Positions 1-58,253 of a stretch of DNA of 64,000 nt are shown one piece after another; position 1 is the first letter of the stretch, and every line of letters starts with the position of its first letter. The notes beneath the pieces were generated by a model. The model had not been told where the DNA came from and made no database searches. It saw only the letters and a list, made by a program, of their open reading frames with translations. The translations under genes were made by a program, and so were the position numbers. The stretch is from Patescibacteria group bacterium (GTDB lineage: Bacteria > Patescibacteriota > WWE3 > JAMCXX01 > JBBTUG01), in the NCBI GenBank assembly GCA_038063895.1, contig JBBTUG010000006.1:6701-70700 (forward strand), written 5' to 3'.

Positions 1-33
1 GCCTTAAAACGCGGTTGGTTAATTCTCCTCATT

Positions 34-1470: not shown

Positions 1471-1480
1471 GAGACGAAAA

Positions 1481-2683
1481 ATGAAAATAATTTTTATAAC
1501 TTACGATCTGCCTTATCCGTTATCCTCCGGGGGGAAGATTAGGGCTTTCCAGATGCTCAAAGCCCTGTCTGCCCGGTATGAGATTACCCTTTATTCCTAC
1601 GTACGGACGGATCCCGACCCCGGACACCTGACGGAATTGCGGAAATACTGTCGGGAGATTCGGCTTTATCAACGGCAAAAAGTCTGGTCATTGGGCCATT
1701 TTCTCCGGGCAGGTTTCTCGGCGTTGCCGGGAACTATCGCTCACTACGTTTGTCCTAAACTTAAGCAGGATTTACTGACGGAGTTGACTACCGGAGGCTA
1801 CCTGGCAGTTCATTTCGAATCCTATTATTCGAGTCTGTATTTACCGGAGGTAAAGGCGCTTGGGATAAATACCATCCTTGGAACGGAAAATATCGAATAT
1901 GATCTTTATCGTAAATTTGTCCTTAGCCTTCCGTTTATAGCCTTGCCGCTCAAGGCCTTCCTTTATTTTGATCTTGGCAAGATGCGCCGTTTTGAAGAGA
2001 ACTCGTGGCGGTTGGCGGACTCCGTTCTCGCCGTTTCGGAGGAAGAGGCTGCCGTTATCTCAAAGGCGGCCGGAAGAGAGGTTCAAGTAGTCGCCAATGG
2101 GGTGGACATACGCCAGTTTGCCGCTGTTGCCAGAAAAGCCTCCGGGCCCCCGACGGTTATTTTTGTCGGTAACCTAAAATACCTCCAAAACGACCGGGGG
2201 ATTAAAAAATTTCTCTCCGTGACTTTGCCGATAATAAGAAAAGAATGTCCGGACTTAGTAGTTAAAATCGTCAGCAGCCACCGGCCCGCCTGGATTAACG
2301 ATTATCTGTCCGGGATTGAACTGATTATCGATAGTCAAACGCCTTTTTCCGAATTTGCGCCCCGAGCCGACGTGCTGATTAATCCGGTCGAAGTCAAAGG
2401 GGGCACCCGGATAAAATTGCTGGAAGGATTAGCCGCCGGGTTGCCGGTTGTTACTTATAGCTCAAGTCTTTCGGGGTTTGACCGGCTGGTACCGGGACGA
2501 GATTTACTGGTCGCGGAAACGCCGGAAAGTTTTGCGGCCTCGGTTGTCCGGCTTTTGGGTGACGCCGCCTTGCGTGATAAGATAGGCGCGGGTGGCCGGG
2601 AAGTGGCGGTCGGGAATTACAGTTGGGATAAAAGCATGGCTCGCCTTTTGAATATTTACCAAAAACTGATTATCGATGAATAA
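1481..2683 (+). CDS. Glycosyltransferase family 4 (GT-B, 'group 1')
   Basis: 400 aa. C-terminal 'RADVLINPVEVKGGTRIKLLEGLAAGLPVVT' matches the GT4 EX7E/nucleotide-sugar binding region. Embedded in a polysaccharide locus. Confidence 0.7.
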   Translation: MKIIFITYDLPYPLSSGGKIRAFQMLKALSARYEITLYSYVRTDPDPGHLTELRKYCREIRLYQRQKVWSLGHFLRAGFSALPGTIAHYVCPKLKQDLLTELTTGGYLAVHFESYYSSLYLPEVKALGINTILGTENIEYDLYRKFVLSLPFIALPLKAFLYFDLGKMRRFEENSWRLADSVLAVSEEEAAVISKAAGREVQVVANGVDIRQFAAVARKASGPPTVIFVGNLKYLQNDRGIKKFLSVTLPIIRKECPDLVVKIVSSHRPAWINDYLSGIELIIDSQTPFSEFAPRADVLINPVEVKGGTRIKLLEGLAAGLPVVTYSSSLSGFDRLVPGRDLLVAETPESFAASVVRLLGDAALRDKIGAGGREVAVGNYSWDKSMARLLNIYQKLIIDE

Positions 2684-5237: not shown

Positions 5238-5239
5238 GT

Positions 5240-5941
5240 ATGAATAAACTGAAAGAACTATCTGTCTTTTTCCCGATATATAACGAGGAGAAAAATATCC
5301 GTACGACATTCGCGAAAACGTTAGCGGTTTTGCCGACTGTCGCCGAGAAGTTTGAAATTCTCCTGGTTAATGACGGTTCCAGTGACCGGACCGGTAAAGT
5401 TCTCGAAGAACTCGCGGCGGGCAACCCCCTTGTCAGAGTTATTACCCATCCCGTTAACCGCGGCTACGGCGCGGCTTTAAAAAGCGGTTTGTACGGAGCG
5501 GCCTACGAGTGGGTGGCCTTTACCGATTCGGACGGGCAGTTTGATTTTTCGGAAATCACCCGCTTTATCGAAACCCAGGCTAAAACCGGCGCCGATATGG
5601 TTATTGGCTATTATCTTCACCGGGCCGTTCCTTTCTACCGGAAAGTTAATTCTTTCCTTTGGCAATTTACCGTGCTCCTTTTTTTCGGCCTTTCCGTCCG
5701 GGACATTGATTGCGGTTTTAAGCTCTTCCGAAAAAAAGTAATTGAAACCATTCCACCCTTGGAGTCGGAACGCGGAGCGTTTATCAGCACCGAGTTCCTA
5801 ATTAAAGCGAAGAAATCAGGGTTTAAAATGGTCGAAATCGGTGTCCACCATTATCCCGCCACCCGGCCGGGGACAGGGGCGAATCTGAACGTGATTCTCA
5901 AAAGCTTTTCCGACCTGTTCAAACTTCGGCGGCGTTTATGA
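5240..5941 (+). CDS. GT2 polyprenyl-phosphate glycosyltransferase (DPM1/GtrB-like)
   Basis: 'SVFFPIYNEEKNI...LLVNDGSSDRT...AFTDSDGQFD' are GT-A DxD-type motifs. The length (about 233 aa) matches dolichol/undecaprenyl-phosphate sugar synthases. Confidence 0.7.
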   Translation: MNKLKELSVFFPIYNEEKNIRTTFAKTLAVLPTVAEKFEILLVNDGSSDRTGKVLEELAAGNPLVRVITHPVNRGYGAALKSGLYGAAYEWVAFTDSDGQFDFSEITRFIETQAKTGADMVIGYYLHRAVPFYRKVNSFLWQFTVLLFFGLSVRDIDCGFKLFRKKVIETIPPLESERGAFISTEFLIKAKKSGFKMVEIGVHHYPATRPGTGANLNVILKSFSDLFKLRRRL

Positions 5942-7206
5942 ATATCGGGATTATTGGCGGGGGATTAACGGGGCTGACGGCAGCCCTAAGACTGGCGCAG
6001 AAAGGCGAATCCGTAACCGTTTTCGAAAGCTCGGATAGTTGGGGCGGCCTGGCCTCGGCTTATGAAATTATTCCCGGCGTTTTAATCGAGCGTTTTTACC
6101 ACCATATTTTTACCAATGATCGGGATATTCTCTCTCTCTGCGCGGAGCTTAAGATTTCCGGGAAACTGAAAGTTCTTGACGGGAAAACCTCGCATCTTTA
6201 TCAAGGCAAAATTTATCCCCTCGATACTCCGTTGACGGTTTTAAAATTTTCGCCCTTAAGTTTTTTCGACCGGATCCGTTTTGGCCTTGTTACCCTTTAC
6301 CTAAAATTAAAAACCAGTCCGGGATACTTCGACCGGGTAACCGCCGTGGCTTGGCTTGAAAAATGGTACGGGAAAAGGGCCTACGGGATTGTCTGGCAGC
6401 CTTTGCTGCGGGGAAAGTTTGCCGCGGACTACGACAAAATCTCGATGACCTGGTTTTGGGCCCGGGTGAAAAAAAGAACATCGAAGCTGATATATCCGGA
6501 CGGCAGCTTTCAGGTGTTAATTACTGCCTTAACCGAGGAGATTCTCCGGCTTCGCGGAAGTCTCCGGCTGGGGGTTAATTTGGAGAGTGTGATGCCCGAA
6601 GGAAACGGCTGGAAAGTTACTGTAGGGGGTTTTCCCCTGTATTTCGATAAATTGATTACCACGACTTCCCTGCCGACTTTTTTGCGGATGTTTCCGGCCC
6701 TGCCCGTGCTTTACCGGAGTCAGCTCGCTTCGATCAAATATCTGACGGCCCAGGTAATGGTTTTGGTTTTAAAAAACCGTTTAAGCGCCAACTACTGGAT
6801 GAACGTTGGGGAGACGGATTTTCCGTTTCTGGTGGTCGGGGAGCAAAGCAACCTGTTCGGGACGGAGTATTATAAGGGCCGCTCCGTGGTGTATTTAGGC
6901 AACTATCTGATGGATACCGAGGCGCGACTGAAAATGGATGAAAAAGAATTACTGGCTCTTTACGAACCATACTTAAAGAAGATTAATCCGCGATTTGAAA
7001 CAGACTGGGTCGAGAAAGTAGCAAATTTCGTCGGACCTTTCGCCCAGCCGGTCGTTGATTTAGCTTATCGTGATAAGATCCCACCGCTTCCGGTTCCGGG
7101 CTACAGTAACTTATTTCTGGCGACAATGGCTCAAGTTTATCCTTGGGACCGGGGAACCAATTACAGCGTGAAGCTCGCTAATGAGCTGGTCGCGCAATTT
7201 TTTTAA
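5938..7206 (+). CDS. FAD/NAD(P)-binding oxidoreductase (UDP-galactopyranose mutase / protoporphyrinogen-oxidase-like fold)
   Basis: N-terminal dinucleotide-binding motif 'IGIIGGGLTGLTAALRLAQKGESVTVFE' followed by 'GGLASAYE' and 'RFYHHIFTNDRDI'. These resemble UGM/amine-oxidase superfamily motifs. The gene sits between glycosyltransferases. Confidence 0.5.
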   Translation: MNIGIIGGGLTGLTAALRLAQKGESVTVFESSDSWGGLASAYEIIPGVLIERFYHHIFTNDRDILSLCAELKISGKLKVLDGKTSHLYQGKIYPLDTPLTVLKFSPLSFFDRIRFGLVTLYLKLKTSPGYFDRVTAVAWLEKWYGKRAYGIVWQPLLRGKFAADYDKISMTWFWARVKKRTSKLIYPDGSFQVLITALTEEILRLRGSLRLGVNLESVMPEGNGWKVTVGGFPLYFDKLITTTSLPTFLRMFPALPVLYRSQLASIKYLTAQVMVLVLKNRLSANYWMNVGETDFPFLVVGEQSNLFGTEYYKGRSVVYLGNYLMDTEARLKMDEKELLALYEPYLKKINPRFETDWVEKVANFVGPFAQPVVDLAYRDKIPPLPVPGYSNLFLATMAQVYPWDRGTNYSVKLANELVAQFF

Positions 7207-7210
7207 ACAG

Positions 7211-8344
7211 ATGAAAATCGGAATTGATGCCCGTTTTTACAATGAGGCCGGACCGGGCCGTTATGTTAAGAACTTAATTTCCGAACTGGAAAAAATTGAT
7301 TCCGATAATACTTATTTTATTTTTTTAAAAAAATCCAATTACGACAGCTATATTCCGATTAACCCTAAGTTTAAAAAAATCTCCGCCCCCTACCAGTGGT
7401 ATAGCCTCAGTGAGCAGCTTTTGTTTCCTTTTAAAATTCTTTTGAGCGGAGTTGACCTGATGCACTTTACCCAATTCAATATTCCGGTCTTTTGGCCCGG
7501 CCCCTTTATCGTGACCATCCACGACATGATTATGCACGAATACTCCACCGAGAGGGACACCACCCGTTTTCCTTTTATCTATTGTCTGAAAAAAACTATC
7601 TACCTTATTGTTTTCCGGCTTGCCTGTTCCCGGGCCCGGCATATCCTGGTTCCCAGCCTTGCCACCCGCGACGATTTGGTGAATAAACTGAAAATACATA
7701 AAGAGAAAATTACCGTGACTTACGAAGGCGTGGGGGTGGAACCGGTTCAAGCTGAGGATGAGCCCGGAATCTTAGAAAAGTATGGAGTCCGCAGCCCGTA
7801 TCTACTGTACGTCGGGAGCATGTATCCGCACAAAAACTTAGAGCGGCTGATTTCCGCTTTTCAGTTGCTCTTGGGTAAGTTTCATTATCCCGGGAAGTTG
7901 GTGATTATCGGGAAGGAGAGCGATTTTTCCCGGCGTCTGCGCAGTTTAGTGGTCGGATTGGGTTTGGAAAAAGACGTGATCTTTCCCGGGGCGCAGTCTT
8001 CCGATGGTTACCTATCCGACCGGGAAGTTGCCGCTTTTTACCGGCAGGCGCAGTTGTATGTCTTCCCATCGTTAAAAGAAGGTTTCGGTTTGCCGACTCT
8101 GGAAGCGATGCGTTTTGGAATTCCAGTCGCGGCTTCGCGGGTCAGTTGCATTCCGGAGATTTGCGCACAGGCAGCGGTTTACTTCGACCCGGGTTCTCCC
8201 GAAGATATGGCGGAGAAAATCAACGGATTACTTACTGATGAAGATTTACGGAAAAGGCTGATTACGGCCGGCTATTCCCGGGCTGCTGAATTTTCCTGGA
8301 AAACGATGGCGGAGATGACTTTGTCGGCTTACCTCCGTTTGTGA
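7211..8344 (+). CDS. Glycosyltransferase family 4
   Basis: 'MKIGIDARF...' N-terminus and C-terminal 'FPSLKEGFGLPTLEAMRFGIPVAASRVSCIPEI' (the GT4 E-x7-E region). A likely real start at 7211 lies inside the ORF-track ORF 7181..8344. Confidence 0.7.
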   Translation: MKIGIDARFYNEAGPGRYVKNLISELEKIDSDNTYFIFLKKSNYDSYIPINPKFKKISAPYQWYSLSEQLLFPFKILLSGVDLMHFTQFNIPVFWPGPFIVTIHDMIMHEYSTERDTTRFPFIYCLKKTIYLIVFRLACSRARHILVPSLATRDDLVNKLKIHKEKITVTYEGVGVEPVQAEDEPGILEKYGVRSPYLLYVGSMYPHKNLERLISAFQLLLGKFHYPGKLVIIGKESDFSRRLRSLVVGLGLEKDVIFPGAQSSDGYLSDREVAAFYRQAQLYVFPSLKEGFGLPTLEAMRFGIPVAASRVSCIPEICAQAAVYFDPGSPEDMAEKINGLLTDEDLRKRLITAGYSRAAEFSWKTMAEMTLSAYLRL

Positions 8345-8369
8345 TATCCTTCTGTCAGTTGCTTCAACG

Positions 8370-9002
8370 ATGCTTATGATCGGGCGTAGTTACGAAATTG
8401 CTAAGCGGGTGACGGACATTATTATTTCTTTAATATGTTTTCTGTTACTTTCTCCGCTGTTCCTGGTTGTTAGTGTTTTAATTAAGCTGGACGACGGCGG
8501 TAAAGTGATTTATTTCCACGACCGCTGCGGCCGGGGACGGAAAACTTTCCGTCTTTATAAATTCCGTTCAATGGTTGAAAATGCCGATGATCTTCTTTTT
8601 TCGGATCCGAAGTTTCTGGAGCAGCTCCGTAGCGGGGTCCACAAAATTCCGAACGATCCGCGGATTACCCGGATCGGTAAGTTCATCCGGAAATACAGTA
8701 TTGATGAGCTGCCGCAGTTCATCAACGTTTTAAAGGGGGATATGAGCGTGGTCGGACCCCGGGCCTATCGGCCGGACGAGATGCAGAAGTTCGAGCAGGA
8801 CTGCCCCCAGATGGCGGGGGAAATTAACGATATTATGTCAGTCAAGCCGGGGATTACCGGTCTGTGGCAGGTCAGCGGCCGTTCAAAAATACCTTTCGAA
8901 AAGCGGGTCGTAATGGAAGCTTTCTACGCCCGGAAGAAATCGTTGGTCTTAGATTGGATTATAATGTTGAGAACGCCCCTGGCGATTATTGAAGGAGTCT
9001 AG
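8370..9002 (+). CDS. Small monotopic phosphoglycosyl transferase (bacterial sugar transferase, PglC/WbaP C-terminal-domain type); initiating enzyme
   Basis: 'KRVTDIIISLICFLLLSPLFLVVSVLIKLDDGGKVIYFHDRCGRGRKTFRLYKFRSM...DELPQFINVLKGDMSVVGPR' are hallmark motifs of polyprenyl-phosphate hexose-1-P transferases. Confidence 0.7.
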   Translation: MLMIGRSYEIAKRVTDIIISLICFLLLSPLFLVVSVLIKLDDGGKVIYFHDRCGRGRKTFRLYKFRSMVENADDLLFSDPKFLEQLRSGVHKIPNDPRITRIGKFIRKYSIDELPQFINVLKGDMSVVGPRAYRPDEMQKFEQDCPQMAGEINDIMSVKPGITGLWQVSGRSKIPFEKRVVMEAFYARKKSLVLDWIIMLRTPLAIIEGV

Positions 9003-9004
9003 CG

Positions 9005-10849
9005 ATGATTTTAACGGAAACAAAAAAGGGAAACAAAGTAAACAAAAGGAAACTGAAAATGGTATCGGTTATCATAGGTCTCTTGGCCGTTTTCGGCTAT
9101 TTTTTCGCTCTCAGTCCGGTTTTGGCAACGTTACATACCGCAAAACTGCTAACAGCCGATTTCAAATACTTTAAGGACGGAATTATTCTGCAAAATCTTC
9201 CCCAAATGAAAAATGCCATCACCGCCGCCGAAAAAGATGCGAAATCTCTAAAAAATAACTCCCAGCTGCTGGTGTGGCTAAATGTCGTTCCGGTGCTTAA
9301 CGGTTACTACAGTGACCTGGTCAACGGGTCGGAGGCACTTCTGCACGGGGTCCGCGCAGTGGGGTTGGTTCTGGATGCGGCTACGCCTGAGGCCGCCAGT
9401 TTGGGTTTTTCCCCTTCGGGGGCTAAGATTCCGATTTCCGGCCAGGATAGAATTTCCGGCTTGGTTAAAATCGCCCCCCTGCTTAGCGGTCAGTATGAAG
9501 AAATCGCGGCGGAGCTTACGCAAATTCAGAATAGTTTTAACCGGATTGACCCGAATAGATACCCGGAAACCTATTCCGGAAAGCCCCTTCGGGGAATTCT
9601 TACAAGCGTTAGGGATGCTTTGGAAACCGTTGGCGGAAACTCTACCGATCTGAAGGCTTTTCTTGACGCTGTCCCCGAAGTCCTCGGCGCCACCGAGGCT
9701 AAGACTTACTTGGTTCTTTTCCAGAATGATAAGGAGTTGCGTCCGACCGGCGGCTTTTGGACAGCTTACGCGCTCCTTCGGATGGAAAAAGGAAAGATTG
9801 TCAGTATTCAGGCCGGTGATATTTATTTTTTGGATATCGACAACCGTGTGGCTTTTTACCCGACCCCGCCGGCGGTTATCCAAAAATACTTAAAGCTTGA
9901 TAAGTGGTATATCCGAGATACAAATATGTCCCCCGATTTCCGGAAATCGATTGAGCTGTTTAACGAGTTTTGGGCCCGGGTTCCGGGGGTTCCGAAAACG
10001 GACGGCATTTTCGCTATTGATACCGCCTTTGTTCAGGGACTGTTAACGGTTTTAGGAGATATTAAAATACCGAATTACGAAACGTTTACCAGCGAGAATG
10101 TGGTTTATCAGTTGGAGCTGGTGGCAAACGTTTTGGGCAGTCGGGAGGAGAAACGCGGAGGCCGCAAGGATATCATCGGGGTTTTGATGCGGGAGATGAT
10201 GTCGAAAGCTTTCGCCCTCCCGTCCAATCAATACGATAAGATTATCGGGAAAGTAATGGATATGGCCGTGAAGAAACACCTGCTTTTGTATTTTAATAAT
10301 CCTGAAGCCCAGGCGCTGGCGGAGAAATATAATCTGGCCGGGCGGATTAATGATTTCGACGGCGATTATCTTCACGTGAACGATGCGAATTTAGGCGGAC
10401 GGAAAGCGAATATGTATATGAAGGAAGATATAAGCAAAGAGATAAAAATGTTGGGCGGCGGCAAAGAGGTTTTAAGCACGGTGACCGTTGATTATGAAAA
10501 TACCGGCAGTTACAACGCCGATTGGAATACCGGCTATCGGGATTACGTCCGGGTTTATGTTCCGAAAGGCTCCGAGCTGATTTCCGGTTCGGGTTCTTTG
10601 GAAACGATTACCAGCGGCGAAGACTTAGGCCGAACCTACTTCGATGCCTATATGGCCGTCAATCCGTTACAAAAAGCAAAGCTGACTTTAACTTACCGGT
10701 TGCCTTCGGGTCTGATAAAGAACGGACAGCCGTACCAATTGCTTATCCAGAAGCAGCCCGGAACCGACGGGCAGAACTACACGGTTTCTGTTGGAAACAA
10801 GAAAGAAAGTTTTGTTTTAGAGACCGACCGGATTGTGGAAATTAAATAG
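9005..10849 (+). CDS. DUF4012 domain membrane-anchored protein
   Basis: One N-terminal TM helix plus 'FQNDKELRPTGGFWTAYALL', the characteristic DUF4012 E(L)RPTGGF motif. The gene typically neighbours a priming sugar transferase, as it does here. Confidence 0.55.
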   Translation: MILTETKKGNKVNKRKLKMVSVIIGLLAVFGYFFALSPVLATLHTAKLLTADFKYFKDGIILQNLPQMKNAITAAEKDAKSLKNNSQLLVWLNVVPVLNGYYSDLVNGSEALLHGVRAVGLVLDAATPEAASLGFSPSGAKIPISGQDRISGLVKIAPLLSGQYEEIAAELTQIQNSFNRIDPNRYPETYSGKPLRGILTSVRDALETVGGNSTDLKAFLDAVPEVLGATEAKTYLVLFQNDKELRPTGGFWTAYALLRMEKGKIVSIQAGDIYFLDIDNRVAFYPTPPAVIQKYLKLDKWYIRDTNMSPDFRKSIELFNEFWARVPGVPKTDGIFAIDTAFVQGLLTVLGDIKIPNYETFTSENVVYQLELVANVLGSREEKRGGRKDIIGVLMREMMSKAFALPSNQYDKIIGKVMDMAVKKHLLLYFNNPEAQALAEKYNLAGRINDFDGDYLHVNDANLGGRKANMYMKEDISKEIKMLGGGKEVLSTVTVDYENTGSYNADWNTGYRDYVRVYVPKGSELISGSGSLETITSGEDLGRTYFDAYMAVNPLQKAKLTLTYRLPSGLIKNGQPYQLLIQKQPGTDGQNYTVSVGNKKESFVLETDRIVEIK

Positions 10850-10893
10850 TTACCCCGTTTCCGTTTTCTTCCCGCTGTTATACTTAGTTTATT

Positions 10894-11445
10894 ATGCCCT
10901 CATTTCAAGCTGACGGAATCATCGTGAAAAGAATTAATTTCGGCGAGAAAGATAAGATTCTCACTGTGATTACGCGCGATAGTGGAAAAATAAAGACGTT
11001 GGCTAAAGGAATCAGGCGGATTAACAGCCGCCGGGCGGGTAACGTCGAGCTATTTAATTTTGCCCGGCTGCATCTGGCTGTCGGGCGGACTTTTAATATT
11101 TTAACCGAAGCCAAGTTGCTGGAGACTTTCCCGTCGTTTCGGAGTGACCTTAAGAAATCAGCGGCAGCTTTTTATTTTTCCGAATTAGCCGACCGCTTTG
11201 TTCCGGAAGATCAGGAAAACCGGGAGTTATTTTTCATCCTGCTTGCCGCATTCCGGAAGTTAGAGAGCACCCAAAGTATCCAGATGGAGTTTATCCGTGA
11301 GTTTGAGGGCCGATTGCTGGAGCACACCGGTTTTGGCCATGACCGGGAATTTGAGCCCGAAAAACCCTATTTGATGCTGGAGAAAGTGCTGGGAAGGAAC
11401 CTACCTTCCCGCCTTTTTCTAGACCGGGTCTGGGGTATGGAATAA
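10894..11445 (+). CDS. recO: DNA repair protein RecO (short form)
   Basis: N-terminal OB-fold motif 'GIIVKRINFGEKDKILTVITRDSGKIKTLAKGIRR'. 183 aa. Confidence 0.6.
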   Translation: MPSFQADGIIVKRINFGEKDKILTVITRDSGKIKTLAKGIRRINSRRAGNVELFNFARLHLAVGRTFNILTEAKLLETFPSFRSDLKKSAAAFYFSELADRFVPEDQENRELFFILLAAFRKLESTQSIQMEFIREFEGRLLEHTGFGHDREFEPEKPYLMLEKVLGRNLPSRLFLDRVWGME

Positions 11446-11493
11446 ATGGATTAAATAAGCCTGTGCGTATCTTTAACGAATAGCAAACGATCG

Positions 11494-11522
11494 TTGAAAA
11501 AAGTTTAAAGATTAATTATACT
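11494..11522 (+). promoter_or_regulatory. Candidate sigma70-type promoter (TTGAAA-17-TATACT) upstream of the PaaX-like gene
   Basis: 'ttgaaa' at 11494-11499, a 17-nt spacer, then 'tatact' at 11517-11522. Confidence 0.35.
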
Positions 11523-11570
11523 GAGAGCGTAGCAAAGTTATCTTGCGAGAGCAAAGATACTTTAATTGAG

Positions 11571-12167
11571 ATGCCACACTCCATTCTACTAAGTAACTTA
11601 CCGCCTAGCGGCGGGTCTTTAACCCTTCGGGACAAAATTCTTTTGAGTCTTTTGTGTGTTGGGGCGATGGTTGAGACTACTTTAGCTGAAGCGTCTACGC
11701 CACAGACTATTGAATATGCTCTAAGTTCCTTGGAGCGGAAGGAGTTTATTCGAAAGAAGCGAGGTTCGATTAAGAGTACAATTTCTTACCTACTGGCCGA
11801 AAAACTTCTTCGGGCCAGCGGGTCGTATCGCAAGAGATCATTTCAGCTGACCGAGGAAGGGTTGAATACTCTTTTTTCCAAGTTTCCCACCCTTAAGTAT
11901 CGGAAGTTTAATTGGGACGGTCGTTGGCGTGTTGTGATTTATGATATCCGTGAACAGGATCACCGTCTCAGAGACCGGTTAAGAACAAGGCTTAAATCCC
12001 TCGGTTTTAAGTTTATGCAAAAAAGTGTTTGGATCTCGCCATATCCGATGGAAGCGGATCTGGAGGATTTTCTCCGAAAAGAAAATCTTTGGGGAAGAAT
12101 CTTCGTCTTTTCGGCGACTTTGCCGAAAAAGGAAAATCTAAAAATAATCCGATTATTTAATCTTTAA
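11571..12167 (+). CDS. PaaX-like family protein (winged-helix plus PaaX_C-like domain), paralog 1
   Basis: 'WDGRWRVVIYDIREQDHRLRDRLRTRLKSLGFKFMQKSVWISPYP' matches the PaaX C-terminal domain signature (W.G.W..V.Y.IPE..R..R..L...GFG.LQ...WISP). Confidence 0.5.
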   Translation: MPHSILLSNLPPSGGSLTLRDKILLSLLCVGAMVETTLAEASTPQTIEYALSSLERKEFIRKKRGSIKSTISYLLAEKLLRASGSYRKRSFQLTEEGLNTLFSKFPTLKYRKFNWDGRWRVVIYDIREQDHRLRDRLRTRLKSLGFKFMQKSVWISPYPMEADLEDFLRKENLWGRIFVFSATLPKKENLKIIRLFNL

Positions 12168-12249
12168 GGAAACACATACGATCGTGCGGCAAATATTAAG
12201 GGTTAAGAGTGGGAATTAAGGTAGTTAAGTATTGAGTGAAACAAATCAG

Positions 12250-12279
12250 TTGACAGTCGAGAGCCCCTCAGCCTATTAT
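12250..12279 (+). promoter_or_regulatory. Candidate promoter (TTGACA-18-TATTAT) driving the T-box leader
   Basis: 'ttgaca' at 12250-12255 and 'tattat' at 12274-12279. Confidence 0.35.
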
Positions 12280-12284
12280 GTCTT

Positions 12285-12425
12285 TGAAACTTAATATCGG
12301 TGATGAGGGGGTTGGCAGCCCGGAGCCGGAACGATAAAGAGTCTCGCTTCGGTCAGATGAGGCGGGGAACTAGGGTGGAACCGCCCAAGGATGGGTCCCT
12401 ATGCGTAAAAGCATGGGGTTTTTCG
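12285..12425 (+). promoter_or_regulatory. T-box riboswitch leader, glycine-type (T-box sequence plus intrinsic terminator)
   Basis: A canonical T-box motif 'AACTAGGGTGGAACCGCC' lies at 12368-12385. The 'UGGA' bulge fits discriminator U73 of tRNA-Gly. A candidate GGC specifier sits at 12313-12315 in 'uuGGCa'. A terminator hairpin 'ccctatgc/gcatgggg' followed by TTTTT lies at 12397-12423. glyS is downstream. Confidence 0.6.
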
Positions 12426-12469
12426 TTTTGGGGTGGACACTTAAAATTGGAAAGGAGGTGAGAAAAATG

Positions 12470-12688
12470 GGTAATCAAGCGGGTAACCAAGTTGGTGGTC
12501 CATTGGGTGATCGCTGGCTGAATTTCTTCTGGTACCTGGTTATGATTCTGGGGGTTGGTTCTTTAGTGGTATCTGGGTTTAACCAGGAGTTGGGCATGGT
12601 TGGTGTTGGGCTGACCTGTCTTAGCGTTGTTGTCTTCGCCGTCGTAGCTGCAGTCGGACTGGCAACAATAGGACCAATTGAGAAGTAA
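12470..12688 (+). CDS. Small (73 aa) two-TM membrane peptide with a strong SD, located between the T-box terminator and glyS
   Basis: 'ggaaAGGAGGTGagaaaaATG' is a near-perfect RBS. The product has two hydrophobic helices. The ORF-track version (12401..12688) begins inside the T-box terminator, so the start is trimmed to 12470. Confidence 0.4.
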   Translation, partial: GNQAGNQVGGPLGDRWLNFFWYLVMILGVGSLVVSGFNQELGMVGVGLTCLSVVVFAVVAAVGLATIGPIEK

Positions 12689-25283: not shown

Positions 25284-26827
25284 ATAAACTTCTTGCCGAC
25301 TTCGGAATTACCGAAACAGATGGCGGACCGGAAATTATCGGGATTACTGACGACTCCCGAAAAGTAAAACCAGGATATTTGTTCGTAGCAGTAAAAGGGT
25401 TGGAGCATGATGGGCACAAATACATCGAACAGGCAATTATGGCGGGAGCGTGTGCGGTTGTGTTCGATGTAAAGTCAAAAGTTTCCGCCCAAGGCGGATC
25501 CGCCGAGGGAGGAAAAAGTCAAAAGTCAAAATTTTCAGGCACTATTTTCGTGGGTGTGAGAGGTTCAAGAAAGGCCCTAGGGCTTCTTTGGGCGGCGTGG
25601 TACGGGTATCCGGCCAAATCGTTAAGAGTCATCGGTGTGACCGGGACGGACGGAAAAACAACGACAGCTAACCTTATCTACCACCTGTTGAAATCGGCCG
25701 GAAAAAAAGTTGGCCTAATCTCGACGATCAACGCTCAAATCGGGAACGATAGTTTTGAGACCGGTTTCCACGTGACCAACCCGGAGCCGGAGTTGCTCCA
25801 AAAGTTTTTAAGATTAATGGTTGATCGGGGCACGGAGTTTGCGGTTTTGGAAGTAACCTCGCACGGAATTGATCAGGAACGGATTGCCGGAATCGGTTTT
25901 GAGATTGCCGTGGTTACGAACGTGGCGCGGGAGCATCTCGATTACCACAAAACGTATGAAAATTATCTAAATACAAAAGGGCGTCTACTCGCTTCCGACA
26001 AGGTAAGTATTCTCAATCGGGACGACAGCTCCTTCTCTTATTTAAAGAGTGTTTCCGGAGGCGAGGTGCTCAGCTACGGCATTCACCAAAAAGCTGATTT
26101 TCAAGCCACCAAGGTTACGCTACTTGGGGAATCCGCCGTATTTACCTTGGAGCCCGGTTCCGTTGAAGTAAAAATTAATCTGCCCGGAGAATACAATATC
26201 GCTAACGCTCTTGCGGCGGCGGCCGCGGCCTTCACTGTTGGGCTGAGTGGGAAGCAAGTCGCTGCAGGGCTTCAAAGTTTCCAGACGCTTCCGGGGAGGT
26301 TTGAGGAGATAAAGACCGGACGGGATTTCCGGGTCGTGGTGGATTTCGCGCATACGCCCAACGCGCTTGAGAGTGTCCTGTCTATTAGCCGTAAAATCCT
26401 GATCATACCCACACCCTTAGGGTCAAGGCTTCCCGACCCTAAGGACGAGAAACCGCAAGAGCCAAAATTAATTGTAGTTTTCGGGTGCGCGGGGGAACGG
26501 GACAGTGGGAAGCGGCCGCTGATGGGTGAGATTGCAGGCCGGTTGGCGGATATCTCGATCCTGACCGCGGAGGATCCCCGGCGCGAGGATGTTAACGGAA
26601 TTATTGAGCAAATTGCTGCGGGATGCCAAAAATCGGGTGAGCATATATTTATTAAAGAACCTGACCGGCGGAAGGCGATCGAATTGGCAATAAATATGGC
26701 CAAGGCCGGCGACTTAATTATTATCACCGGCAAGGGGCACGAGAAATCAATGTGCTTCGGGACAACAGAGTATCCGTGGAGTGATCAGGAAGTAGCAAAG
26801 GGTATTTTAGAAAGGAATAACAAATAA
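25274..26827 (+). CDS. murE: UDP-N-acetylmuramoyl-L-alanyl-D-glutamate--2,6-diaminopimelate (or L-Lys) ligase; carries in-frame repeat insertions
   Basis: 'VIGVTGTDGKTTTANLI' P-loop and 'VTNVAREHLDYH'. An 'EDPRRED' motif retains the Arg typical of DAP-type enzymes. Confidence 0.85.
   Translation: MRLDKLLADFGITETDGGPEIIGITDDSRKVKPGYLFVAVKGLEHDGHKYIEQAIMAGACAVVFDVKSKVSAQGGSAEGGKSQKSKFSGTIFVGVRGSRKALGLLWAAWYGYPAKSLRVIGVTGTDGKTTTANLIYHLLKSAGKKVGLISTINAQIGNDSFETGFHVTNPEPELLQKFLRLMVDRGTEFAVLEVTSHGIDQERIAGIGFEIAVVTNVAREHLDYHKTYENYLNTKGRLLASDKVSILNRDDSSFSYLKSVSGGEVLSYGIHQKADFQATKVTLLGESAVFTLEPGSVEVKINLPGEYNIANALAAAAAAFTVGLSGKQVAAGLQSFQTLPGRFEEIKTGRDFRVVVDFAHTPNALESVLSISRKILIIPTPLGSRLPDPKDEKPQEPKLIVVFGCAGERDSGKRPLMGEIAGRLADISILTAEDPRREDVNGIIEQIAAGCQKSGEHIFIKEPDRRKAIELAINMAKAGDLIIITGKGHEKSMCFGTTEYPWSDQEVAKGILERNNK
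26412..26447 (+). repeat. 36-bp palindromic element, copy A (in-frame inside murE)
   Basis: Arms 'ccttagggtc'/'gaccctaagg' with loop 'aaggcttccc'. It encodes PTPLGSRLPDPK. Confidence 0.8.
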
Positions 26828-29680: not shown

Positions 29681-30835
29681 ATGAAAGAAATGGAAAACGA
29701 AAAGAAAAACATCGGAGTAATATTTGGCGGAATGAGCGCCGAATGCGAGGTATCTTTAGCAACGGGGAGATACGTTTACTCGCTGCTAAATAATAAAAAA
29801 TTTACCGGAACGCCATTTTATTTGGATAAAAAAGGCACTCTTTGGCAGGTTCCAGACAAACTGGTAATCCAAAATACGACGACGGATATCGAGCAGCGCC
29901 TGGAGAAGGACGCGAGCCGGGTAAATTTCGAGGACCTTCCCGGGAAAGTCAGCTGTGTTTTTAATGCGCTGTTGGGCAAGTACGGCGAGGATGGCTGTTT
30001 TCAGGCGATCTTGGAATTGTTGAAAATTCCTTACACCGGTTCAGGAATTCTCGCTTCCGCGTTGGGGATGGATAAAAAAGTCCACAAGAAAATGCTCTCC
30101 GGGGCGGGGTTTTTAGTGGCCAAAGATCTATTAATTCGTAATTCGGAATTCGATATTCGGAAAGTTACGGAAAAAGTTTCCAGGGAAATCGGTTTCCCCT
30201 GCGTTGTGAAGCCGACCCGGGAAGGTTCAAGTATGGGAGTGTCGGTGGTTAAAGAAGAAAAGGGTTTGGAAACAGCGTTCGAGTACGCCTTTAAGTATGA
30301 TCAGGAGGTTCTTGTCGAAGAGTATCTGAAAGGGATGGAGTTTACCTGCGTGGTTTGGGGCAACGACGATCCGAAAGCTATGCTCCCTACCGAAGTCGTG
30401 TTCGAGGGCGATTTTTTTACGTATGAAGGTAAATACATGCCGGGAAAAACCCAGACGATTACGCCCGCCCGGCTTTCGGAAGAGGGCTTGGCCGAGATAC
30501 AGCGCCAATCCGTGGCGATTTATCAGCTGATTGGTTGCCAGGGCTATGGCCGGGTTGACGGCTTTGTCGTTCCTAAGACCCTAAAGGTCGGGGAGCCCAG
30601 ACCTTTAGGGTCTTTGAGTTTGTCTGATATCTCAATTTACATCGCTGAGCCGCACACGGGAACAATTATGGTTCCTTCGTCTTTCGTTTTTCAACAGGCG
30701 GCGAAGTTCCGGATTGATCTGTCCACAGAATTCCATGGAAAAAAAGGTTCGATTCCGATGACCCCGCGCATTTTGGTAACAAAAATTATTGAGTTAGCCT
30801 TCGAAGCGTTTAGCAATAAGAAAGGATTATTATGA
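29681..30835 (+). CDS. ddl: D-alanine--D-alanine ligase (paralog 1; Lys-Tyr retained at the K215/Y216-equivalent position)
   Basis: ATP-grasp motifs 'FPCVVKPTREGSSMGVS' and 'FFTYEGKYMPG' (K at 30431-33, Y at 30434-36). The C-terminus is extended by a repeat insertion. Confidence 0.8.
   Translation: MKEMENEKKNIGVIFGGMSAECEVSLATGRYVYSLLNNKKFTGTPFYLDKKGTLWQVPDKLVIQNTTTDIEQRLEKDASRVNFEDLPGKVSCVFNALLGKYGEDGCFQAILELLKIPYTGSGILASALGMDKKVHKKMLSGAGFLVAKDLLIRNSEFDIRKVTEKVSREIGFPCVVKPTREGSSMGVSVVKEEKGLETAFEYAFKYDQEVLVEEYLKGMEFTCVVWGNDDPKAMLPTEVVFEGDFFTYEGKYMPGKTQTITPARLSEEGLAEIQRQSVAIYQLIGCQGYGRVDGFVVPKTLKVGEPRPLGSLSLSDISIYIAEPHTGTIMVPSSFVFQQAAKFRIDLSTEFHGKKGSIPMTPRILVTKIIELAFEAFSNKKGLL
30577..30612 (+). 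repeat. 36-bp palindromic element, copy B (in-frame inside ddl paralog 1)
   Basis: Perfect 13-bp arms 'gaccctaaaggtc'/'gacctttagggtc' with loop 'ggggagccca'. It encodes KTLKVGEPRPLG. Confidence 0.85.
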
Positions 30836-33913: not shown

Positions 33914-35383
33914 TTATCTATAAATATCAGGGAGGTCGTTTTCGAAGAGGATCAGAGAGTTGGGTTTGACTAATTGCGGGATTATCTCTTTGGTTGCCTG
34001 ATCGAGGGAGTCAGTGATGAATAATCTCTGACCTATTGTTCCGTTGTTCCATTGTTTCATTGCTGTGGCGTTGCTCCAGCCGCCTTCTCTAATTCCTTGC
34101 AGAAGGGCTGCACGGTTGGTTTTGTTGACGATCACGGCGTAATCAAAATTTTCGGCAATCAGTTCTCCTAACTTTTTATTCTCTTCGAACTGCTGTTTTC
34201 CCAATTCCACTATTCCCGGAGTCACTATTATTTTTGGGTAGTTGGGTAAACGGGTAATCAGTTTTATTGCGGCCCGGGCGCCCTCCGGGTTGCTGCTGTA
34301 GGCGTCATCAATTATTAACGAGTTTTCGGGGCCGTGGATTAGTTGTAAGCGGTGTTCCGGTGGGCTGACCTTGAATAGGCCGTGCCTTATTTCCTCTTCA
34401 GTTAAGCCTAAATATGTTCCTACAGCAATAGCCGCCAGGGCATTGCTGACGTTGTGGTCTGCCGGGAGGTTGAGGGTGTAAGTGTCTTGTTTTACCCTGA
34501 ACTCGGAGGATTCGGGAGAGGATGAAATAATTTCCGCCTGAAGATCGGCTTCAACTCCGTGCGGTTTGCTAATCCGGGAGTAACCTACTTTATTTATTAT
34601 AGTTTTTAGATAGAGTTCTACGCATGGTTGGGAGTACAGATTGAAAACCGCCAAGCCCTCCTCCGGAAGGGATTGAATCAATTCCGATTTAGCTTCCACG
34701 ATATTTTCCAAACTCCCGAACCGCTCCAGGTGCTGATTAGTTATTCCGGTGATAATCCCGATTTTAGGTCGAACCATCCGGCAGAGTTCCGCAATCTCGC
34801 CTTTTTTGTAGGCGCCCATTTCGACGATAAAGACTTCGTGCTCCGGCTTTAATTTCATATTGATGATACCGGCTATGCCGAAAAGCGTATTGTAGCTTTT
34901 TGGAGTCGCCAAAACTTCGTACTTCGTTGCGAGAACAGTTGCTAGGATTTCCTTCACCGTGGTTTTGCCGTAACTGCCGGTAATTCCGATGACCAATAGG
35001 TTTTTGTGTTCCGTGATAATTTTTTGGGCACGGAGAACCGTCCGGCGGCGGTTGATGATTTCGTATGGCCGGAGAACTAGTAAAGATATTAGAAGTAACG
35101 GCTGGGGGAACAGCTGAAGAAGAATAACGATAATTACACCCTTAAGGTCAAGGCTCCCCGACCTTAAGGGTGTGGCCCAGGGCTGAAATAGAAATATGGG
35201 AGCTAGGCTGAGGGCAGTGGCGCATATGAAAAGAAACCTGGCCTTCGAAGTCCACACCAGCGCCTTTTTCTTTTCCAGTCCTAAACGGAACAAATTTTGA
35301 ACGGTCCATTTAATGAAGCGGACTAGGTCGTATTCCAAAACCTGCAGGGCGTAAAGCTGGTTGTAAAGCGGGATGTACCTCAT
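33914..35383 (-). CDS. murF: UDP-N-acetylmuramoyl-tripeptide--D-alanyl-D-alanine ligase, with an N-terminal hydrophobic extension containing a repeat insert
   Basis: 'LLVIGITGSYGKTTVKEIL' P-loop and 'IGIITGITNQHLERFGS'. The start is set at Met 'MRYIPLYNQL' (35383) because the longer ORF overlaps the upstream hydrolase gene. The two genes overlap in an ATGA arrangement. Confidence 0.85.
   Translation of the reverse strand: MRYIPLYNQLYALQVLEYDLVRFIKWTVQNLFRLGLEKKKALVWTSKARFLFICATALSLAPIFLFQPWATPLRSGSLDLKGVIIVILLQLFPQPLLLISLLVLRPYEIINRRRTVLRAQKIITEHKNLLVIGITGSYGKTTVKEILATVLATKYEVLATPKSYNTLFGIAGIINMKLKPEHEVFIVEMGAYKKGEIAELCRMVRPKIGIITGITNQHLERFGSLENIVEAKSELIQSLPEEGLAVFNLYSQPCVELYLKTIINKVGYSRISKPHGVEADLQAEIISSSPESSEFRVKQDTYTLNLPADHNVSNALAAIAVGTYLGLTEEEIRHGLFKVSPPEHRLQLIHGPENSLIIDDAYSSNPEGARAAIKLITRLPNYPKIIVTPGIVELGKQQFEENKKLGELIAENFDYAVIVNKTNRAALLQGIREGGWSNATAMKQWNNGTIGQRLFITDSLDQATKEIIPQLVKPNSLILFENDLPDIYR
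35137..35172 (+). repeat. 36-bp palindromic element, copy C (in-frame inside the murF N-terminal region)
   Basis: Perfect arms 'cacccttaaggtc'/'gaccttaagggtg' with loop 'aaggctcccc'. It encodes PLRSGSLDLKGV in murF. Confidence 0.85.
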
Positions 35384-36105
35384 AAAATAAATTCCGAGAT
35401 TAATTTTGCGACCAGAGCCGGTTGTTCTATAAACGGGAAATGGCCGCACTGCGGGATAATTTTTAAGACCGAGTTTTTTATTCCCCTTTTCATAATCGCC
35501 GCGTCGCGGATGGGAGTTTCGGGATCTTCCTCGCCCCAAATAAGTAACGTTGGAGCCGCAATATTGCTCAACTTAGTCCGAAGGTCCTCTTCCACAATTA
35601 TAGCCATTGTCGCCTTCATCGGACCGGCGGCGCGGTAATCTTCCGATTGGAAGGATTTTGCCAGAGGTTTTTTAATAAATTCGGGAGAATTCGAAAAAGC
35701 TTTCGACATTAGAAGTTTCGTTTGGGTGAGGATGTCGCGGCGGCGGATTCCCGCGCTGTCAATCAAAATCATTTTCTTTACTCCGTTATATTCCAGCGCG
35801 TAGGCGAGTGCAATTTTCCCGCCAACCGAGTGTCCCAATAAAATGGGTGATTCGATTTCCAGTTCCTTAAAAAATTGATTTAATAAGGCGGCGTAATCGC
35901 GGCTGGAAAAAGGGGTTGCCGGAACCGAGCTTTCTCCGAAACCGGGCAGGTCCAAAAAGATCATTTGGAAAGGGAGCGCCGCGAGGTAAGGTTTTAAACT
36001 TTCCCAAATCTGCAGATTAGCTCCCCACCCGTGCAAAAAAACAATTTGTTCTCCGCGCCCGTAAACCTCGAAGTTGATATTCAGTCCCTTGATTGAGATG
36101 TTCAT
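35380..36105 (-). CDS. Alpha/beta-hydrolase fold protein
   Basis: 'VFLHGWGANLQIWE' and the nucleophile elbow 'GHSVGG'. 241 aa. Confidence 0.7.
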   Translation of the reverse strand: MNISIKGLNINFEVYGRGEQIVFLHGWGANLQIWESLKPYLAALPFQMIFLDLPGFGESSVPATPFSSRDYAALLNQFFKELEIESPILLGHSVGGKIALAYALEYNGVKKMILIDSAGIRRRDILTQTKLLMSKAFSNSPEFIKKPLAKSFQSEDYRAAGPMKATMAIIVEEDLRTKLSNIAAPTLLIWGEEDPETPIRDAAIMKRGIKNSVLKIIPQCGHFPFIEQPALVAKLISEFIL

Positions 36106-36119
36106 GAGTCGTCGCCGCT

Positions 36120-36155
36120 CACCTTAAAGATCATGGCTCTTCGACCTTTAAGGTG
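36120..36155 (+). repeat. 36-bp palindromic element, copy D (intergenic, in the 5' UTR of the hydrolase-murF operon)
   Basis: Arms 'caccttaaagatc'/'gacctttaaggtg' with one mismatch, and loop 'atggctcttc'. Confidence 0.8.
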
Positions 36156-36314
36156 TACGTATCTATTCTACCGTTTCCGCCGCCCTTCTGTCACAACGGT
36201 ACGTTTAGGGGAAGAGGTATAAACACGTCGAGGAATCACGTGACGCAATAAGTTAAAAATAAACTCTACAAATTTAACCGCTGATCGGCTGAATATTTTG
36301 TAGAGTCGATGCTC

Positions 36315-51006: not shown

Positions 51007-51032
51007 TTTATCCTTAACATCCGATAAAAAAA

Positions 51033-51068
51033 CACCCTAAAGGTCGGTGGAGGTTGACCTTCAGGGTG
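51033..51068 (+). repeat. 36-bp palindromic element, copy E (intergenic, at the rpmA 3' end; terminator-like)
   Basis: Arms 'caccctaaaggtc'/'gaccttcagggtg' with one mismatch and loop 'ggtggaggtt'. It is followed by 'taaatgttttt'. Confidence 0.75.
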
Positions 51069-51080
51069 TAAATGTTTTTC

Positions 51081-52406: not shown

Positions 52407-52437
52407 CTCACCTCCTTAACCCTTAAATTGTCGGGTG

Positions 52438-53016: not shown

Positions 53017-53020
53017 AGGC

Positions 53021-53097
53021 TTGGTGCGCATGCCTGGAATCGAACCAGGGACCTCTACGATGTGAACGTAGCGCTCTAACCATCTGAGCTACATGCG
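53021..53097 (-). tRNA. tRNA-Val (anticodon CAC), CCA encoded
   Basis: Reverse complement folds as a cloverleaf: acceptor GCGCATG/CATGCGC, D-arm GCTC-AGATGGTTA-GAGC, anticodon stem CTACG with loop TTCACAT, T-arm CCTGG-TTCGATT-CCAGG, discriminator A, then CCA. Confidence 0.85.
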
Positions 53098-53117
53098 CTT
53101 AAGAATAAATGGTGTCA

Positions 53118-56538: not shown

Positions 56539-56547
56539 TTAGTGGCT

Positions 56548-58233: not shown

Positions 58234-58253
58234 TTTTGACTTTTGAATTAGTC

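Follow-up and report, generated by a model that had tools for sequence, protein, structure and literature searches.

In-frame heptad arrays and a 30-nt palindrome inserted at their unit junctions in murE and ileS of a Patescibacteria bacterium

We analysed a stretch of 64,000 nucleotides from a member of the Patescibacteria (hereafter the window; GenBank assembly GCA_038063895.1, contig JBBTUG010000006.1), in which a 20-nt sequence inside murE, the gene of UDP-MurNAc-tripeptide synthetase, recurs as its reverse complement at the end of a small unit that contains a GIY-YIG nuclease gene. We consider it probable that murE carries an old array of a 7-nt unit (heptad), GTCAAAA, and that a 30-nt palindrome, belonging to a mobile and non-autonomous family, was recently inserted at a junction between two units. 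The array is ancestral in murE, the insertions add exactly 30 nt, the copies share a target motif and a biased reading frame, and the GIY-YIG unit with its heptad termini is mobile.

An old heptad array and a 30-nt insertion in murE

The initial annotation had reported that AAAAGTCAAAAGTCAAAATT, at 25514-25533 (+) in murE, is the exact reverse complement of the right end of the GIY-YIG unit, and that such a match is not expected by chance. Both sites were confirmed, with the start codon of the GIY-YIG gene at 58105 (- strand) on one side of the partner (58225-58244) and the neighbouring gene's stop codon at 58254 on the other, and dinucleotide-preserving shuffles gave a mean of 0.01 matches, with none of 100 shuffles reaching three. 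A copy of AAAAGTCAAAAGTCAAAATT with two mismatches is present at 58218-58237. Within the window, no other exact repeat of at least 16 nt involves the 20-mer loci, except one 18-mer in the murE segment, TCCGCCCAAGGCGGATCC, which starts at 25484 and was identified, in an all-against-all k-mer comparison of the window, as the reverse complement of 47599-47616 in ileS, the gene of isoleucyl-tRNA synthetase (IleRS). Tandem Repeats Finder detected a period of 7 nt at both 20-mer sites (2.6 copies of AAAAGTC with 100% match at 25514-25531, and 7.3 copies of TTTTGAA/C at 58200-58249). Since both sites are arrays of one 7-nt unit, the 20-mer is composed of about 18 nt of common array and 2 nt of a Phe codon; the identity is that of one array with another, and links two instances of a single heptad-array family (GTCAAAA). 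Coding and non-coding DNA do share a heptad family, the origin of which is explained only in part.

Over positions 1-12683 and 51961-64000, the window has 100% identity to three independent assemblies from the same population in Hainich groundwater, an overlap that takes in the GIY-YIG region, with the murE and ileS sites falling outside. The sole independent support for the sequences of these two sites is a protein cross-check, in which the exact MurE protein was found on three contigs and the exact IleRS on four, from several public sources.

The assignment of murE is supported by matches to MurE chains of the PDB (E values of about 1e-83 to 1e-50) and by a 100% identical MurE protein annotated in a Patescibacteria metagenome-assembled genome (MAG). 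Across the segment of interest the peptide reads DVKSKVSAQGGSAEGGKSQKSKFSG, and the further heptad repeats and the GC hairpin described initially are indeed present, with GTCAAAAG at 25474 and 25518 and CCGCCCAAGGCGG at 25485-25497. We compared this segment with the murE DNA of three related Patescibacteria, L001 (about 79% amino acid identity), L002 and L003 (about 61-62%), which reads GAT GTA AAT TCA AAA GTY ^ AAA AGT/ATT CAA AAR TCA AAA TWY. The window has the ortholog codons plus TCC GCC CAA GGC GGA TCC GCC GAG GGA GGA at the position of the caret. The length difference is exactly 30 nt, with unambiguous boundaries and no bases duplicated or lost, and encodes SAQGGSAEGG. The heptad array is present in the three relatives at identical codon positions and with an identical number of units (K-S-Q-K-S-K-F/Y), four of them being carried by the murE of L002, and is therefore ancestral in this gene.

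These comparisons modify the earlier reading. The proposed in-frame insertion was borne out by all three ortholog DNAs, as the 30-nt palindrome; it corresponds to residues 71-80, encoded by the GC-rich double hairpin, instead of residues 80-100 approximately. The GTCAAAAG heptads, for which an origin as in-frame footprints had been suggested, are not a recent footprint of the GIY-YIG unit, as they are present in the three orthologs in equal number, and the residues K-S-Q-K-S-K-F/Y-S-G recur in the alignment of MurE orthologs.

The array appears to be a feature of the DNA, judging by codon alternation and the conservation of synonymous sites. Read across the three frames, (GTCAAAA)3 encodes V-K-S-Q-K-S-K, and the codons alternate between AGT and TCA for Ser and between AAG and AAA for Lys, as the heptad predicts. 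Because one heptad gives V-K/S-Q-K/S-K in all three frames, the DNA repeat would be primary and the K/S-rich peptide secondary. In the right part of the array the nucleotide identity to L002 and L003 is 0.90, versus 0.65 in the remaining gene, and the third-position identity of codons for the same amino acid is 0.89-1.0, versus 0.46 (8-10 codons).

Several observations place the insertion in a loop: the alignments with PDB MurE chains leave 14-18 query residues unaligned at this segment, the Pfam match of the N-terminal domain ends at residue 71, and in the AlphaFold model (mean pLDDT of 88.6) only residues 71-84 and 381-385, both insertion sites, are below 50. Not counting the 10 palindrome residues, the loop is about 8-10 residues longer in this clade than in distant orthologs and solved structures. 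The palindrome is predicted to fold as single-stranded DNA with -10.9 kcal/mol (z = -3.9 versus shuffles).

The murE of L001 does not have the copy found in the window, and carries its own double hairpin at a second site (L001 1667-1696; TTAAAAGTC/TCCGCCCAAGGCGGATCCGCCTCTAGTGGA/AAAAATCAAAAG, encoding SAQGGSASSG), which is absent from the window, L002 and L003. Two close relatives therefore hold independent palindrome insertions in one gene, and the gain of palindromes is recent and recurrent.

The palindrome family and its landing sites

The second copy of the palindrome in the window is located in ileS (Table 1). The 10 residues that it adds to IleRS are missing from all 38 aligned orthologs covering the region (38/38). 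The empty site in the ileS of L006 is GTCAAAACT^CAAAATTCAAAAGTCAAAATT, read as AAA GTC AAA ACT ^ CAA AAT TCA AAA GTC AAA ATT, and the corresponding site of L007 is ATCAAAAATAAAAAATCAAAAGTCAAAATT; both orthologs carry GTCAAAA/TTCAAAA heptads at the insertion site. The copy adds 10 codons inside the heptad array, the L006 site being exactly 30 nt shorter with an equal number of units. As single-stranded DNA it is predicted to form two 6-bp hairpins (-11.3 kcal/mol, z = -4.2 versus shuffles). Both copies of the window are located at AAAGTT^MAAA within a (K)TCAAAA array, and only eight AAAGTY^MAAA sites are unoccupied on the two strands of the window.

Table 1. Coordinates of the features discussed in the text (window positions).
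Feature	Position	Strand	Evidence or remark
murE, UDP-MurNAc-tripeptide synthetase, 517 aa	25274-26827	+	Pfam Mur_ligase, Mur_ligase_M, Mur_ligase_C
Left part of in-frame heptad array, AAAGTCAAAAGTT, codons K67 S68 K69 V70	25471-25483	+	codons shared with L001, L002, L003
30-nt double-hairpin palindrome, TCCGCCCAAGGCGGA/TCCGCCGAGGGAGGA, S71-G80	25484-25513	+	absent from all three ortholog DNAs
Right part of heptad array (the 20-mer), K81 S82 Q83 K84 S85 K86 F87	25514-25533	+	present in orthologs
ileS, isoleucyl-tRNA synthetase, 959 aa	45073-47952	+	100% identical protein annotated as isoleucine--tRNA ligase in a Patescibacteria MAG
Left flank of ileS copy, GTCAAAGTT, degenerate heptad	47578-47586	+	compared with ortholog DNA
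Second double-hairpin palindrome, TCCACCAAAGGTGGA/TCCGCCTTGGGCGGA, S839-G848, STKGGSALGG	47587-47616	+	absent from orthologs
Right flank of ileS copy, CAAAATTCAAGA, degenerate heptad array	47617-47628	+	compared with ortholog DNA
Left terminal heptads of GIY-YIG unit, AAGTCAAAATTCAAAAA, directly after TAA stop of Wzy_C gene	57749-57765	+	inverted repeat; nucleotide homology with L128 begins at this exact point
Left inner inverted-repeat core, GTCATCCTGA...GAAGGATCTC	57774-57805	+	inverted repeats I4, I5; motif found beside nearly all GIY-YIG homologs examined
GIY-YIG nuclease gene, 93 aa	57824-58105	-	PF01541, E = 2.3e-15, 57.1 bits versus cutoff 22.6, residues 5-76
Right inner inverted-repeat core, GAGATCCTTC...TCAGGATGAC	58142-58189	+	inverted repeats; motif near homologs
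Right terminal heptad array, TTTTGAA/C, about 7 units, with 20-mer partner	58194-58249	+	period-7 tandem repeat
Second-family palindrome in murE	26411-26444
Second-family palindrome in ddl ORF (29681-30835)	30576-30613
Second-family palindrome in murF-like ORF (33914-35539, - strand)	35136-35173
Second-family palindrome	36119-36156
Second-family palindrome	51032-51069
Second-family palindrome	55266-55303

When one genome per GTDB species was scanned for the pattern, at least 125 copies of the palindrome were obtained in at least 120 loci, all of them in MAGs; the 80 loci with titles represent at least 73 different assemblies. The host labels and proportions given in this paragraph and the next refer to the matches listed. 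The hosts are mostly Patescibacteria, and the other labels, largely of uncultured phyla, are Omnitrophota, Lentisphaerae, Kiritimatiellae, Planctomycetales, Elusimicrobia, Ignavibacteria, Melainabacteria and Chloroflexota. The consensus is tT(T/C)-TCCGCC nnn GGCGGA TCCGCC nnn GGCGGA-AAa, with GGATCC at the centre; the whole palindrome is an inverted repeat, non-autonomous, present in multiple copies and devoid of coding capacity of its own. Almost half of the copies (59/127, 47%) are inside long open frames (stop-free, at least 600 nt), and 55 of these 59 are read in the frame S-A-x-G-G-S-A-x-G-G.

The flanks of the copies are also biased, with T at position -2 in 100/124 and A at position +2 in 101/124. 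The site TY^MAA is occupied in 43% of the copies versus 1.3% of the background, and the longer AANTY^MAA in 12% versus 0.1%. A 7-nt direct repeat (at least 5/7 identical) straddles 25 of 124 copies (about 20%; controls 1.8%), at a similar rate within and outside open reading frames (ORFs), and the lag-7 autocorrelation of the joined flanks is 0.335 versus 0.255. The array units vary with the genome (AAAAGTC flanks in L080, L079 and L084, ATCAAAA in L100, and also GAAGATT, GAGAACC, AAAATTG and others). In L100, a DNA-ligase-like ORF reads ENQKSKI[SAKGGSASGG]KNQKYNLKIKN over an (ATCAAAA)n array, in parallel to murE.

Double hairpins are also found at the termini of GIY-YIG units related to that of the window: in L128/L214, TCGACCAGAGGTCGATCCACCTCTGGTGGA is located inside the terminal array, between AATTCAAAAGTC and AAAGTCATAA (GTCAAAA-type units), and in L217 a double hairpin follows (TAATTTT)3 at the unit terminus. 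As insertions occur in the arrays of murE, ileS and GIY-YIG termini, heptad arrays would be landing pads for the palindrome. The earlier suggestion that an element targets the heptad sequence is in this way retained for the palindrome, which is inserted inside the array, and not for the GIY-YIG unit, for which targeting was not shown. When GIY-YIG loci (309 kb) and ortholog loci (90 kb) were scanned for double hairpins of any sequence, no credible copy was obtained outside 7-nt arrays; the one further match in the window, at 5383, is unrelated in sequence.

Only three matches to the palindrome were obtained in 2.9 million viral contigs, and its spread by phages is not supported. In a Kiritimatiellae MAG, a host outside the candidate phyla radiation (CPR), the palindrome forms part of a longer unit that is itself repeated and reads ...cataggaattt, palindrome, caatccgtctttgtTGTCATTCCGAGCG... 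(JAQUMN01; L012 4587 and 6408, L067 7325, L009 4484), and one copy is about 230 nt upstream of a GIY-YIG gene. The searchable literature on GGCGGATCCGCC, GTCATCCTGAG-type motifs and in-frame CPR palindromes contained no description of the element, the matches being cloning primers or eukaryotic elements.

The GIY-YIG unit and neighbouring repeats

The GIY-YIG gene lies in a 503-nt spacer between convergent Wzy_C and Big-domain genes, and its unit has nested inverted repeats. The outermost, AAGTCAAAATTCAAAA at 57749-57764, pairs with 58220-58235 with 100% complementarity, and further inside GTCATCCTGA at 57774 pairs with 58180 and GAAGGATCTC at 57796 with 58142. At the syntenic site of L004, a related genome, only 36 nt separate the Wzy_C and Big-domain genes, and both the GIY-YIG gene and the heptads are missing. 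In L128/L214, a unit with 82% identity, aligned to 57749-58215 of the window, is located between different genes, and its heptads abut the TAA stop codons of the neighbours at both ends; in L216 and L217 (about 78% identity) the units adjoin atpC, and A/T-rich heptads are present at the downstream end of both. The heptads at the unit ends of these loci indicate that they are part of the termini in this GIY-YIG sub-lineage. The unit with its heptad termini is evidently mobile, as it is absent from the syntenic site of L004 and occurs in other contexts elsewhere.

The terminal arrays are confined to the sub-lineage at about 78% identity. Distant GIY-YIG homologs (48-68% identity) keep a hairpin-containing inverted repeat, tGTCATyC...GGrATC, without arrays, and none of 116 flanks of these homologs was above the 99th percentile of the controls, so that the idea that GIY-YIG units in general possess heptad arrays was rejected. 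In 80 metagenome loci (L128-L207), nearly all small GIY-YIG genes are bracketed by this type of repeat (upstream tGTCATyC...GGrATC, downstream GATyCC...GrATGACa). Such bracketed genes look like a widespread, apparently undescribed architecture of mobile unit; no description of it was found in the searchable literature on GIY-YIG genes with terminal inverted repeats. Isolated copies of the bracket repeat also occur here and there in the vicinity, e.g., in L135 and L192.

Positions 57500-58500 gave no match to an Rfam intron family even at E values up to 5, and the permissive search of this region gave nothing credible; at gathering thresholds the whole window gave one tRNA only (53025-53098, - strand). 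Promoter and terminator sites are no more numerous in the GIY-YIG region than in shuffles, and so the heptads are no obvious sigma-70 promoter or intrinsic terminator.

The palindrome and the GIY-YIG repeats have features in common. The terminus hairpins of the GIY-YIG units in L135 and L139/L140 have the same stem as the palindrome, TCCGCC-nnnn-GGCGGA, and in L013, an Elusimicrobia MAG, the double hairpin is found inside a terminus-type repeat, GTCATTGCG...AGCGAAGCAATCTC (1400-1429 and 1808-1837). The shared stems and this nesting hint at a relationship between the two repeat systems; among the matches listed, 3 of 125 palindromes are within 1 kb of a GIY-YIG gene. An origin of the palindrome by internal deletion of a GIY-YIG unit, joining its two terminus hairpins, was considered; the flanks of the copies lack GTCAT...ATGAC, except in L013, where the palindrome has entered a terminus-type repeat.

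The window also has a second, unrelated palindrome family, with the consensus ACACCCTTAAGGTC-(about 10 nt)-GACCTTAAGGGTGT, presumably the 36-bp palindromes of the initial annotation. At least six copies are present (Table 1), three of them in frame in cell-wall genes. One is at the second site of murE (residues 380-391 approximately, PTPLGSRLPDPK), where orthologs have no copy and the AlphaFold pLDDT is below 50. Different long insertions are found at the same two MurE loops in the orthologs P0008 and P0031 (loop 1) and P0007 (loop 2), for example NSIRENPAIYGGDELNADMSSSFRGSPALLTRRGRHKR in P0031 and NQSFDRLRIDPERSRTGQN in P0007, the latter looking like a translated GTCAT-type repeat; both loops seem to act as hot spots at which repeats are inserted in general. 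Beside the GIY-YIG unit there is a cluster with the appearance of defence or mobile genes (59091-64000, continuing in L213 7308-18850), with AbiEi/AbiEii, a PhdYeFM antitoxin, Bro-N proteins, a type III restriction-modification methylase, a D12 methyltransferase, a ResIII helicase and a PD-(D/E)XK protein.

Mechanism, alternative explanations and relation to known elements

We propose that this lineage has long carried an in-frame GTCAAAA array in a surface loop of MurE, and a degenerate form in one of IleRS, and that the small mobile unit with the gene of a 93-residue GIY-YIG nuclease ends, on its outermost sides, in inverted copies of the same heptad. The palindrome would have been placed recently and precisely at the array unit junction AAAGTY^MAAA, with neither target-site duplication nor loss of host bases, so that the gene gains exactly 10 codons (S-A-x-G-G-S-A-x-G-G). 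Its preferred landing site would be TY^MAA, with runs of 7-nt repeats as hot spots, and copies would survive in essential genes when read in the only frame that adds a small and flexible surface loop of Gly, Ser and Ala. The palindrome was probably copied in by an enzyme acting in trans. A blunt mechanism, or one without duplication, would fit best; insertion at a short target with no duplication is consistent with a single-strand transposase that recognises hairpins, or with ligation of the duplex into a blunt break, the duplex being captured in break repair. A wider proposal, that the palindrome homes to 7-nt array junctions across phyla and that the GIY-YIG nuclease, or another array-reading enzyme, mobilises both the unit and the palindrome, seems unlikely to us; if true, it would represent a previously undescribed system of nuclease and landing pads that remodels proteins in ultra-small bacteria.

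Several points weigh against an old array with a recent, trans-mobilised insertion. Clean empty sites are available for only two insertions (murE site 1 and ileS), the lack of duplication being assumed for the other copies, and the synonymous-site argument is based on 8-10 codons. The 7-nt direct repeats at about 20% of the copies among the matches listed resemble target-site duplications; a 7-bp duplication would total +37 nt, which is never in frame, and this implies either that the arrays pre-exist, as in murE and ileS, or that there are two modes of insertion. As the array units differ between genomes, a purely sequence-specific target does not explain the frequent period of 7, and the sharing of one heptad by MurE, IleRS and the GIY-YIG termini is not explained. 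Among the matches listed, only 5 of 120 palindrome loci have GIY-YIG genes, and a candidate mobilising gene was not found: there is no Y1 transposase in the approximately 80 kb known from the genome, and a local association search gave only one Y1 gene in 825 kb of palindrome loci. The build-up of arrays by 7-bp duplications and footprints was rejected as their origin for the coding copies, as the empty sites are equal in unit number and +37 nt is out of frame.

Other explanations start from the heptads themselves. The GTCAAAAG heptads of murE could be the in-frame footprint of an insertion and excision of the GIY-YIG unit, or its solo terminus, which is consistent with the identical heptad in the inverted termini of the unit, with the MurE loop being longer in the clade by some 8-10 residues beyond those of the palindrome, and with the conservation of the array at synonymous sites as a DNA-level feature. 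We regard such a footprint as very unlikely: the number of units is identical in orthologs down to 61% identity, no GIY-YIG unit is near any of the murE loci compared, MurE orthologs of equal length without heptads (SNYQLPISKSQET) show no length change, the inner GTCATCCTGA/GAAGGATCTC core was not found beside the murE or ileS arrays, and stepwise 7-nt footprints would frameshift an essential gene. The likeness between the A-rich codons of Lys/Ser-rich surface loops and an A/T-rich intergenic repeat could also be biologically meaningless, considering that both sites are short tandem repeats, for which a long exact match needs only a common 7-mer, and that two-unit matches such as GTCAAAATTCAAAA occur elsewhere (e.g., L211 at 1544). 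A coincidence of this type is highly improbable given the shuffle expectation of 0.01 matches, the alternation of AGT/TCA and AAG/AAA exactly as in a heptad read in three frames, the conserved synonymous sites, the recurrence of the same heptads in ileS orthologs and the occurrence of one palindrome in all types of array.

Two further explanations concern the arrival of the palindrome. Heptads and palindrome may have entered murE and ileS together, as a composite element from which relatives later deleted the palindrome precisely; about 20% of the copies among the matches listed have heptads on both sides, with units that differ by genome, and perfect palindromes are known to be unstable. This would demand at least two independent precise deletions of 30 nt in murE and many in ileS, versus a single gain in the lineage of the window, and the borders of the palindrome have no direct repeats from which a deletion of exactly 30 nt could arise; in addition L001, the closest relative, lacks this copy and yet gained another in murE, so that gain is ongoing, and we give the composite element very little credence. 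Alternatively, the nuclease of the GIY-YIG unit could cut heptad arrays, and the breaks in murE and ileS would be repaired with capture of a 30-bp palindromic duplex, an indirect mobilisation. In favour of this are the heptads forming the termini of the unit, the palindromes located within terminal arrays, or next to them, in two related units, the TCCGCC-nnnn-GGCGGA stem of the terminus hairpins of L135 and L139, the L013 palindrome inside a terminus-type repeat, the 3 of 125 palindromes (among the matches listed) within 1 kb of a GIY-YIG gene, and the exact gain of 30 nt without duplication, which fits ligation into a blunt break. Nevertheless, we find such nuclease-driven capture decidedly unlikely, as the 93-residue protein appears to consist of the catalytic domain only, with no obvious DNA-binding domain, homologs at 48-68% identity have no terminal arrays, and most palindrome loci among the matches listed have no GIY-YIG gene nearby. 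An old array with a recent insertion of a mobile palindrome is the explanation that we retain.

This explanation corrects the earlier reading, as the heptads are old and it is the GC hairpin that corresponds to the insertion. As a natural marker, the palindrome would cleanly record very recent genome change among closely related members of uncultured lineages, and its defined target, TY^MAA inside 7-nt arrays, makes the insertion mechanism testable. The 10-residue SAxGGSAxGG segments and the K/S/Q-rich, heptad-encoded segments of conserved proteins would reflect events at the DNA level and not a signal at the protein level, which is a warning for annotation and phylogenomics.

The palindrome shares features with several known elements. 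Repetitive extragenic palindromes (REP) and the related BIME and REPIN are short GC-rich hairpin doublets, non-autonomous, with many dispersed copies, which are mobilised by RAYT (Y1, HUH) enzymes; REPs are extragenic and have a conserved GTAG-type 5' tetranucleotide next to the hairpin. The palindrome is also a non-autonomous, GC-rich hairpin doublet with many dispersed copies; it differs in that, among the matches listed, 47% of the copies are inside long open frames and the left flank is T-T-Y and the right flank A-A-A, no GTAG being adjacent, and in that no RAYT or Y1 gene is found in the approximately 80 kb known from the genome. Elements of the IS200/IS605 family have ends defined by hairpins and insert beside a short specific target with no target-site duplication, which resembles the two 6-bp hairpins of the palindrome and its exact gain of 30 nt at TY^MAA without duplication. 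However, those elements are much longer and have asymmetric ends, no transposase is linked to the palindrome here, and a symmetric double hairpin of 30 nt has, to our knowledge, not been described as a substrate of IS200/IS605.

Palindromic repeats with coding potential were reportedly described by Suyama, Lathe and Bork in 2005 in Methanocaldococcus jannaschii. They are similarly short, palindromic and in frame inside protein-coding genes of a prokaryote, but belong to another domain of life and have another sequence, and are not known to be associated with heptad arrays. The GIY-YIG protein of the window may be compared with free-standing GIY-YIG homing endonucleases and YhbQ-like proteins (COG2827), as it has a GIY-YIG domain in 93 residues and its unit is present or absent in varied contexts; it differs from homing endonucleases in that no intron was found around the gene by Rfam and the protein has no DNA-binding extension, and in that inverted repeats with hairpins (tGTCATyC...GGrATC) border the unit, joined in this sub-lineage by heptad arrays. 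In-frame palindromic insertions in essential genes are, as far as we know, textbook knowledge only for Rickettsia.

[quoted passage not shown] The palindrome likewise has inverted repeats, is non-autonomous and is present in at least 125 copies, whereas MITEs have target-site duplications in addition to their terminal inverted repeats, and usually 50-400 bp, and no duplication accompanies the palindrome in the two empty-site cases. Rickettsia palindromic elements (RPE) are palindromic repeats that insert in frame into unrelated and often essential genes, where the resulting peptide is compatible with the protein fold (PMC10969869). In the same way, the palindrome is found in frame in MurE and IleRS, with a related copy in a DNA-ligase-like ORF, and its loop in MurE is predicted with pLDDT below 50 in the AlphaFold model. 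In contrast, RPE have about 100-150 bp, form around ten families and occur only in Rickettsia, while the palindrome has 30 nt (34-36 with the T/A flanks), which is five times shorter, occurs in Patescibacteria as well as several further phyla, and lands at a defined site within 7-nt arrays. The palindrome is thereby set apart from REP/BIME by its location within genes and the lack of GTAG, from MITEs by the lack of duplication and from RPE by size and host, and a far smaller element acts like RPE in MurE, IleRS and a DNA-ligase-like gene of Patescibacteria, recurring in genomes of other phyla.

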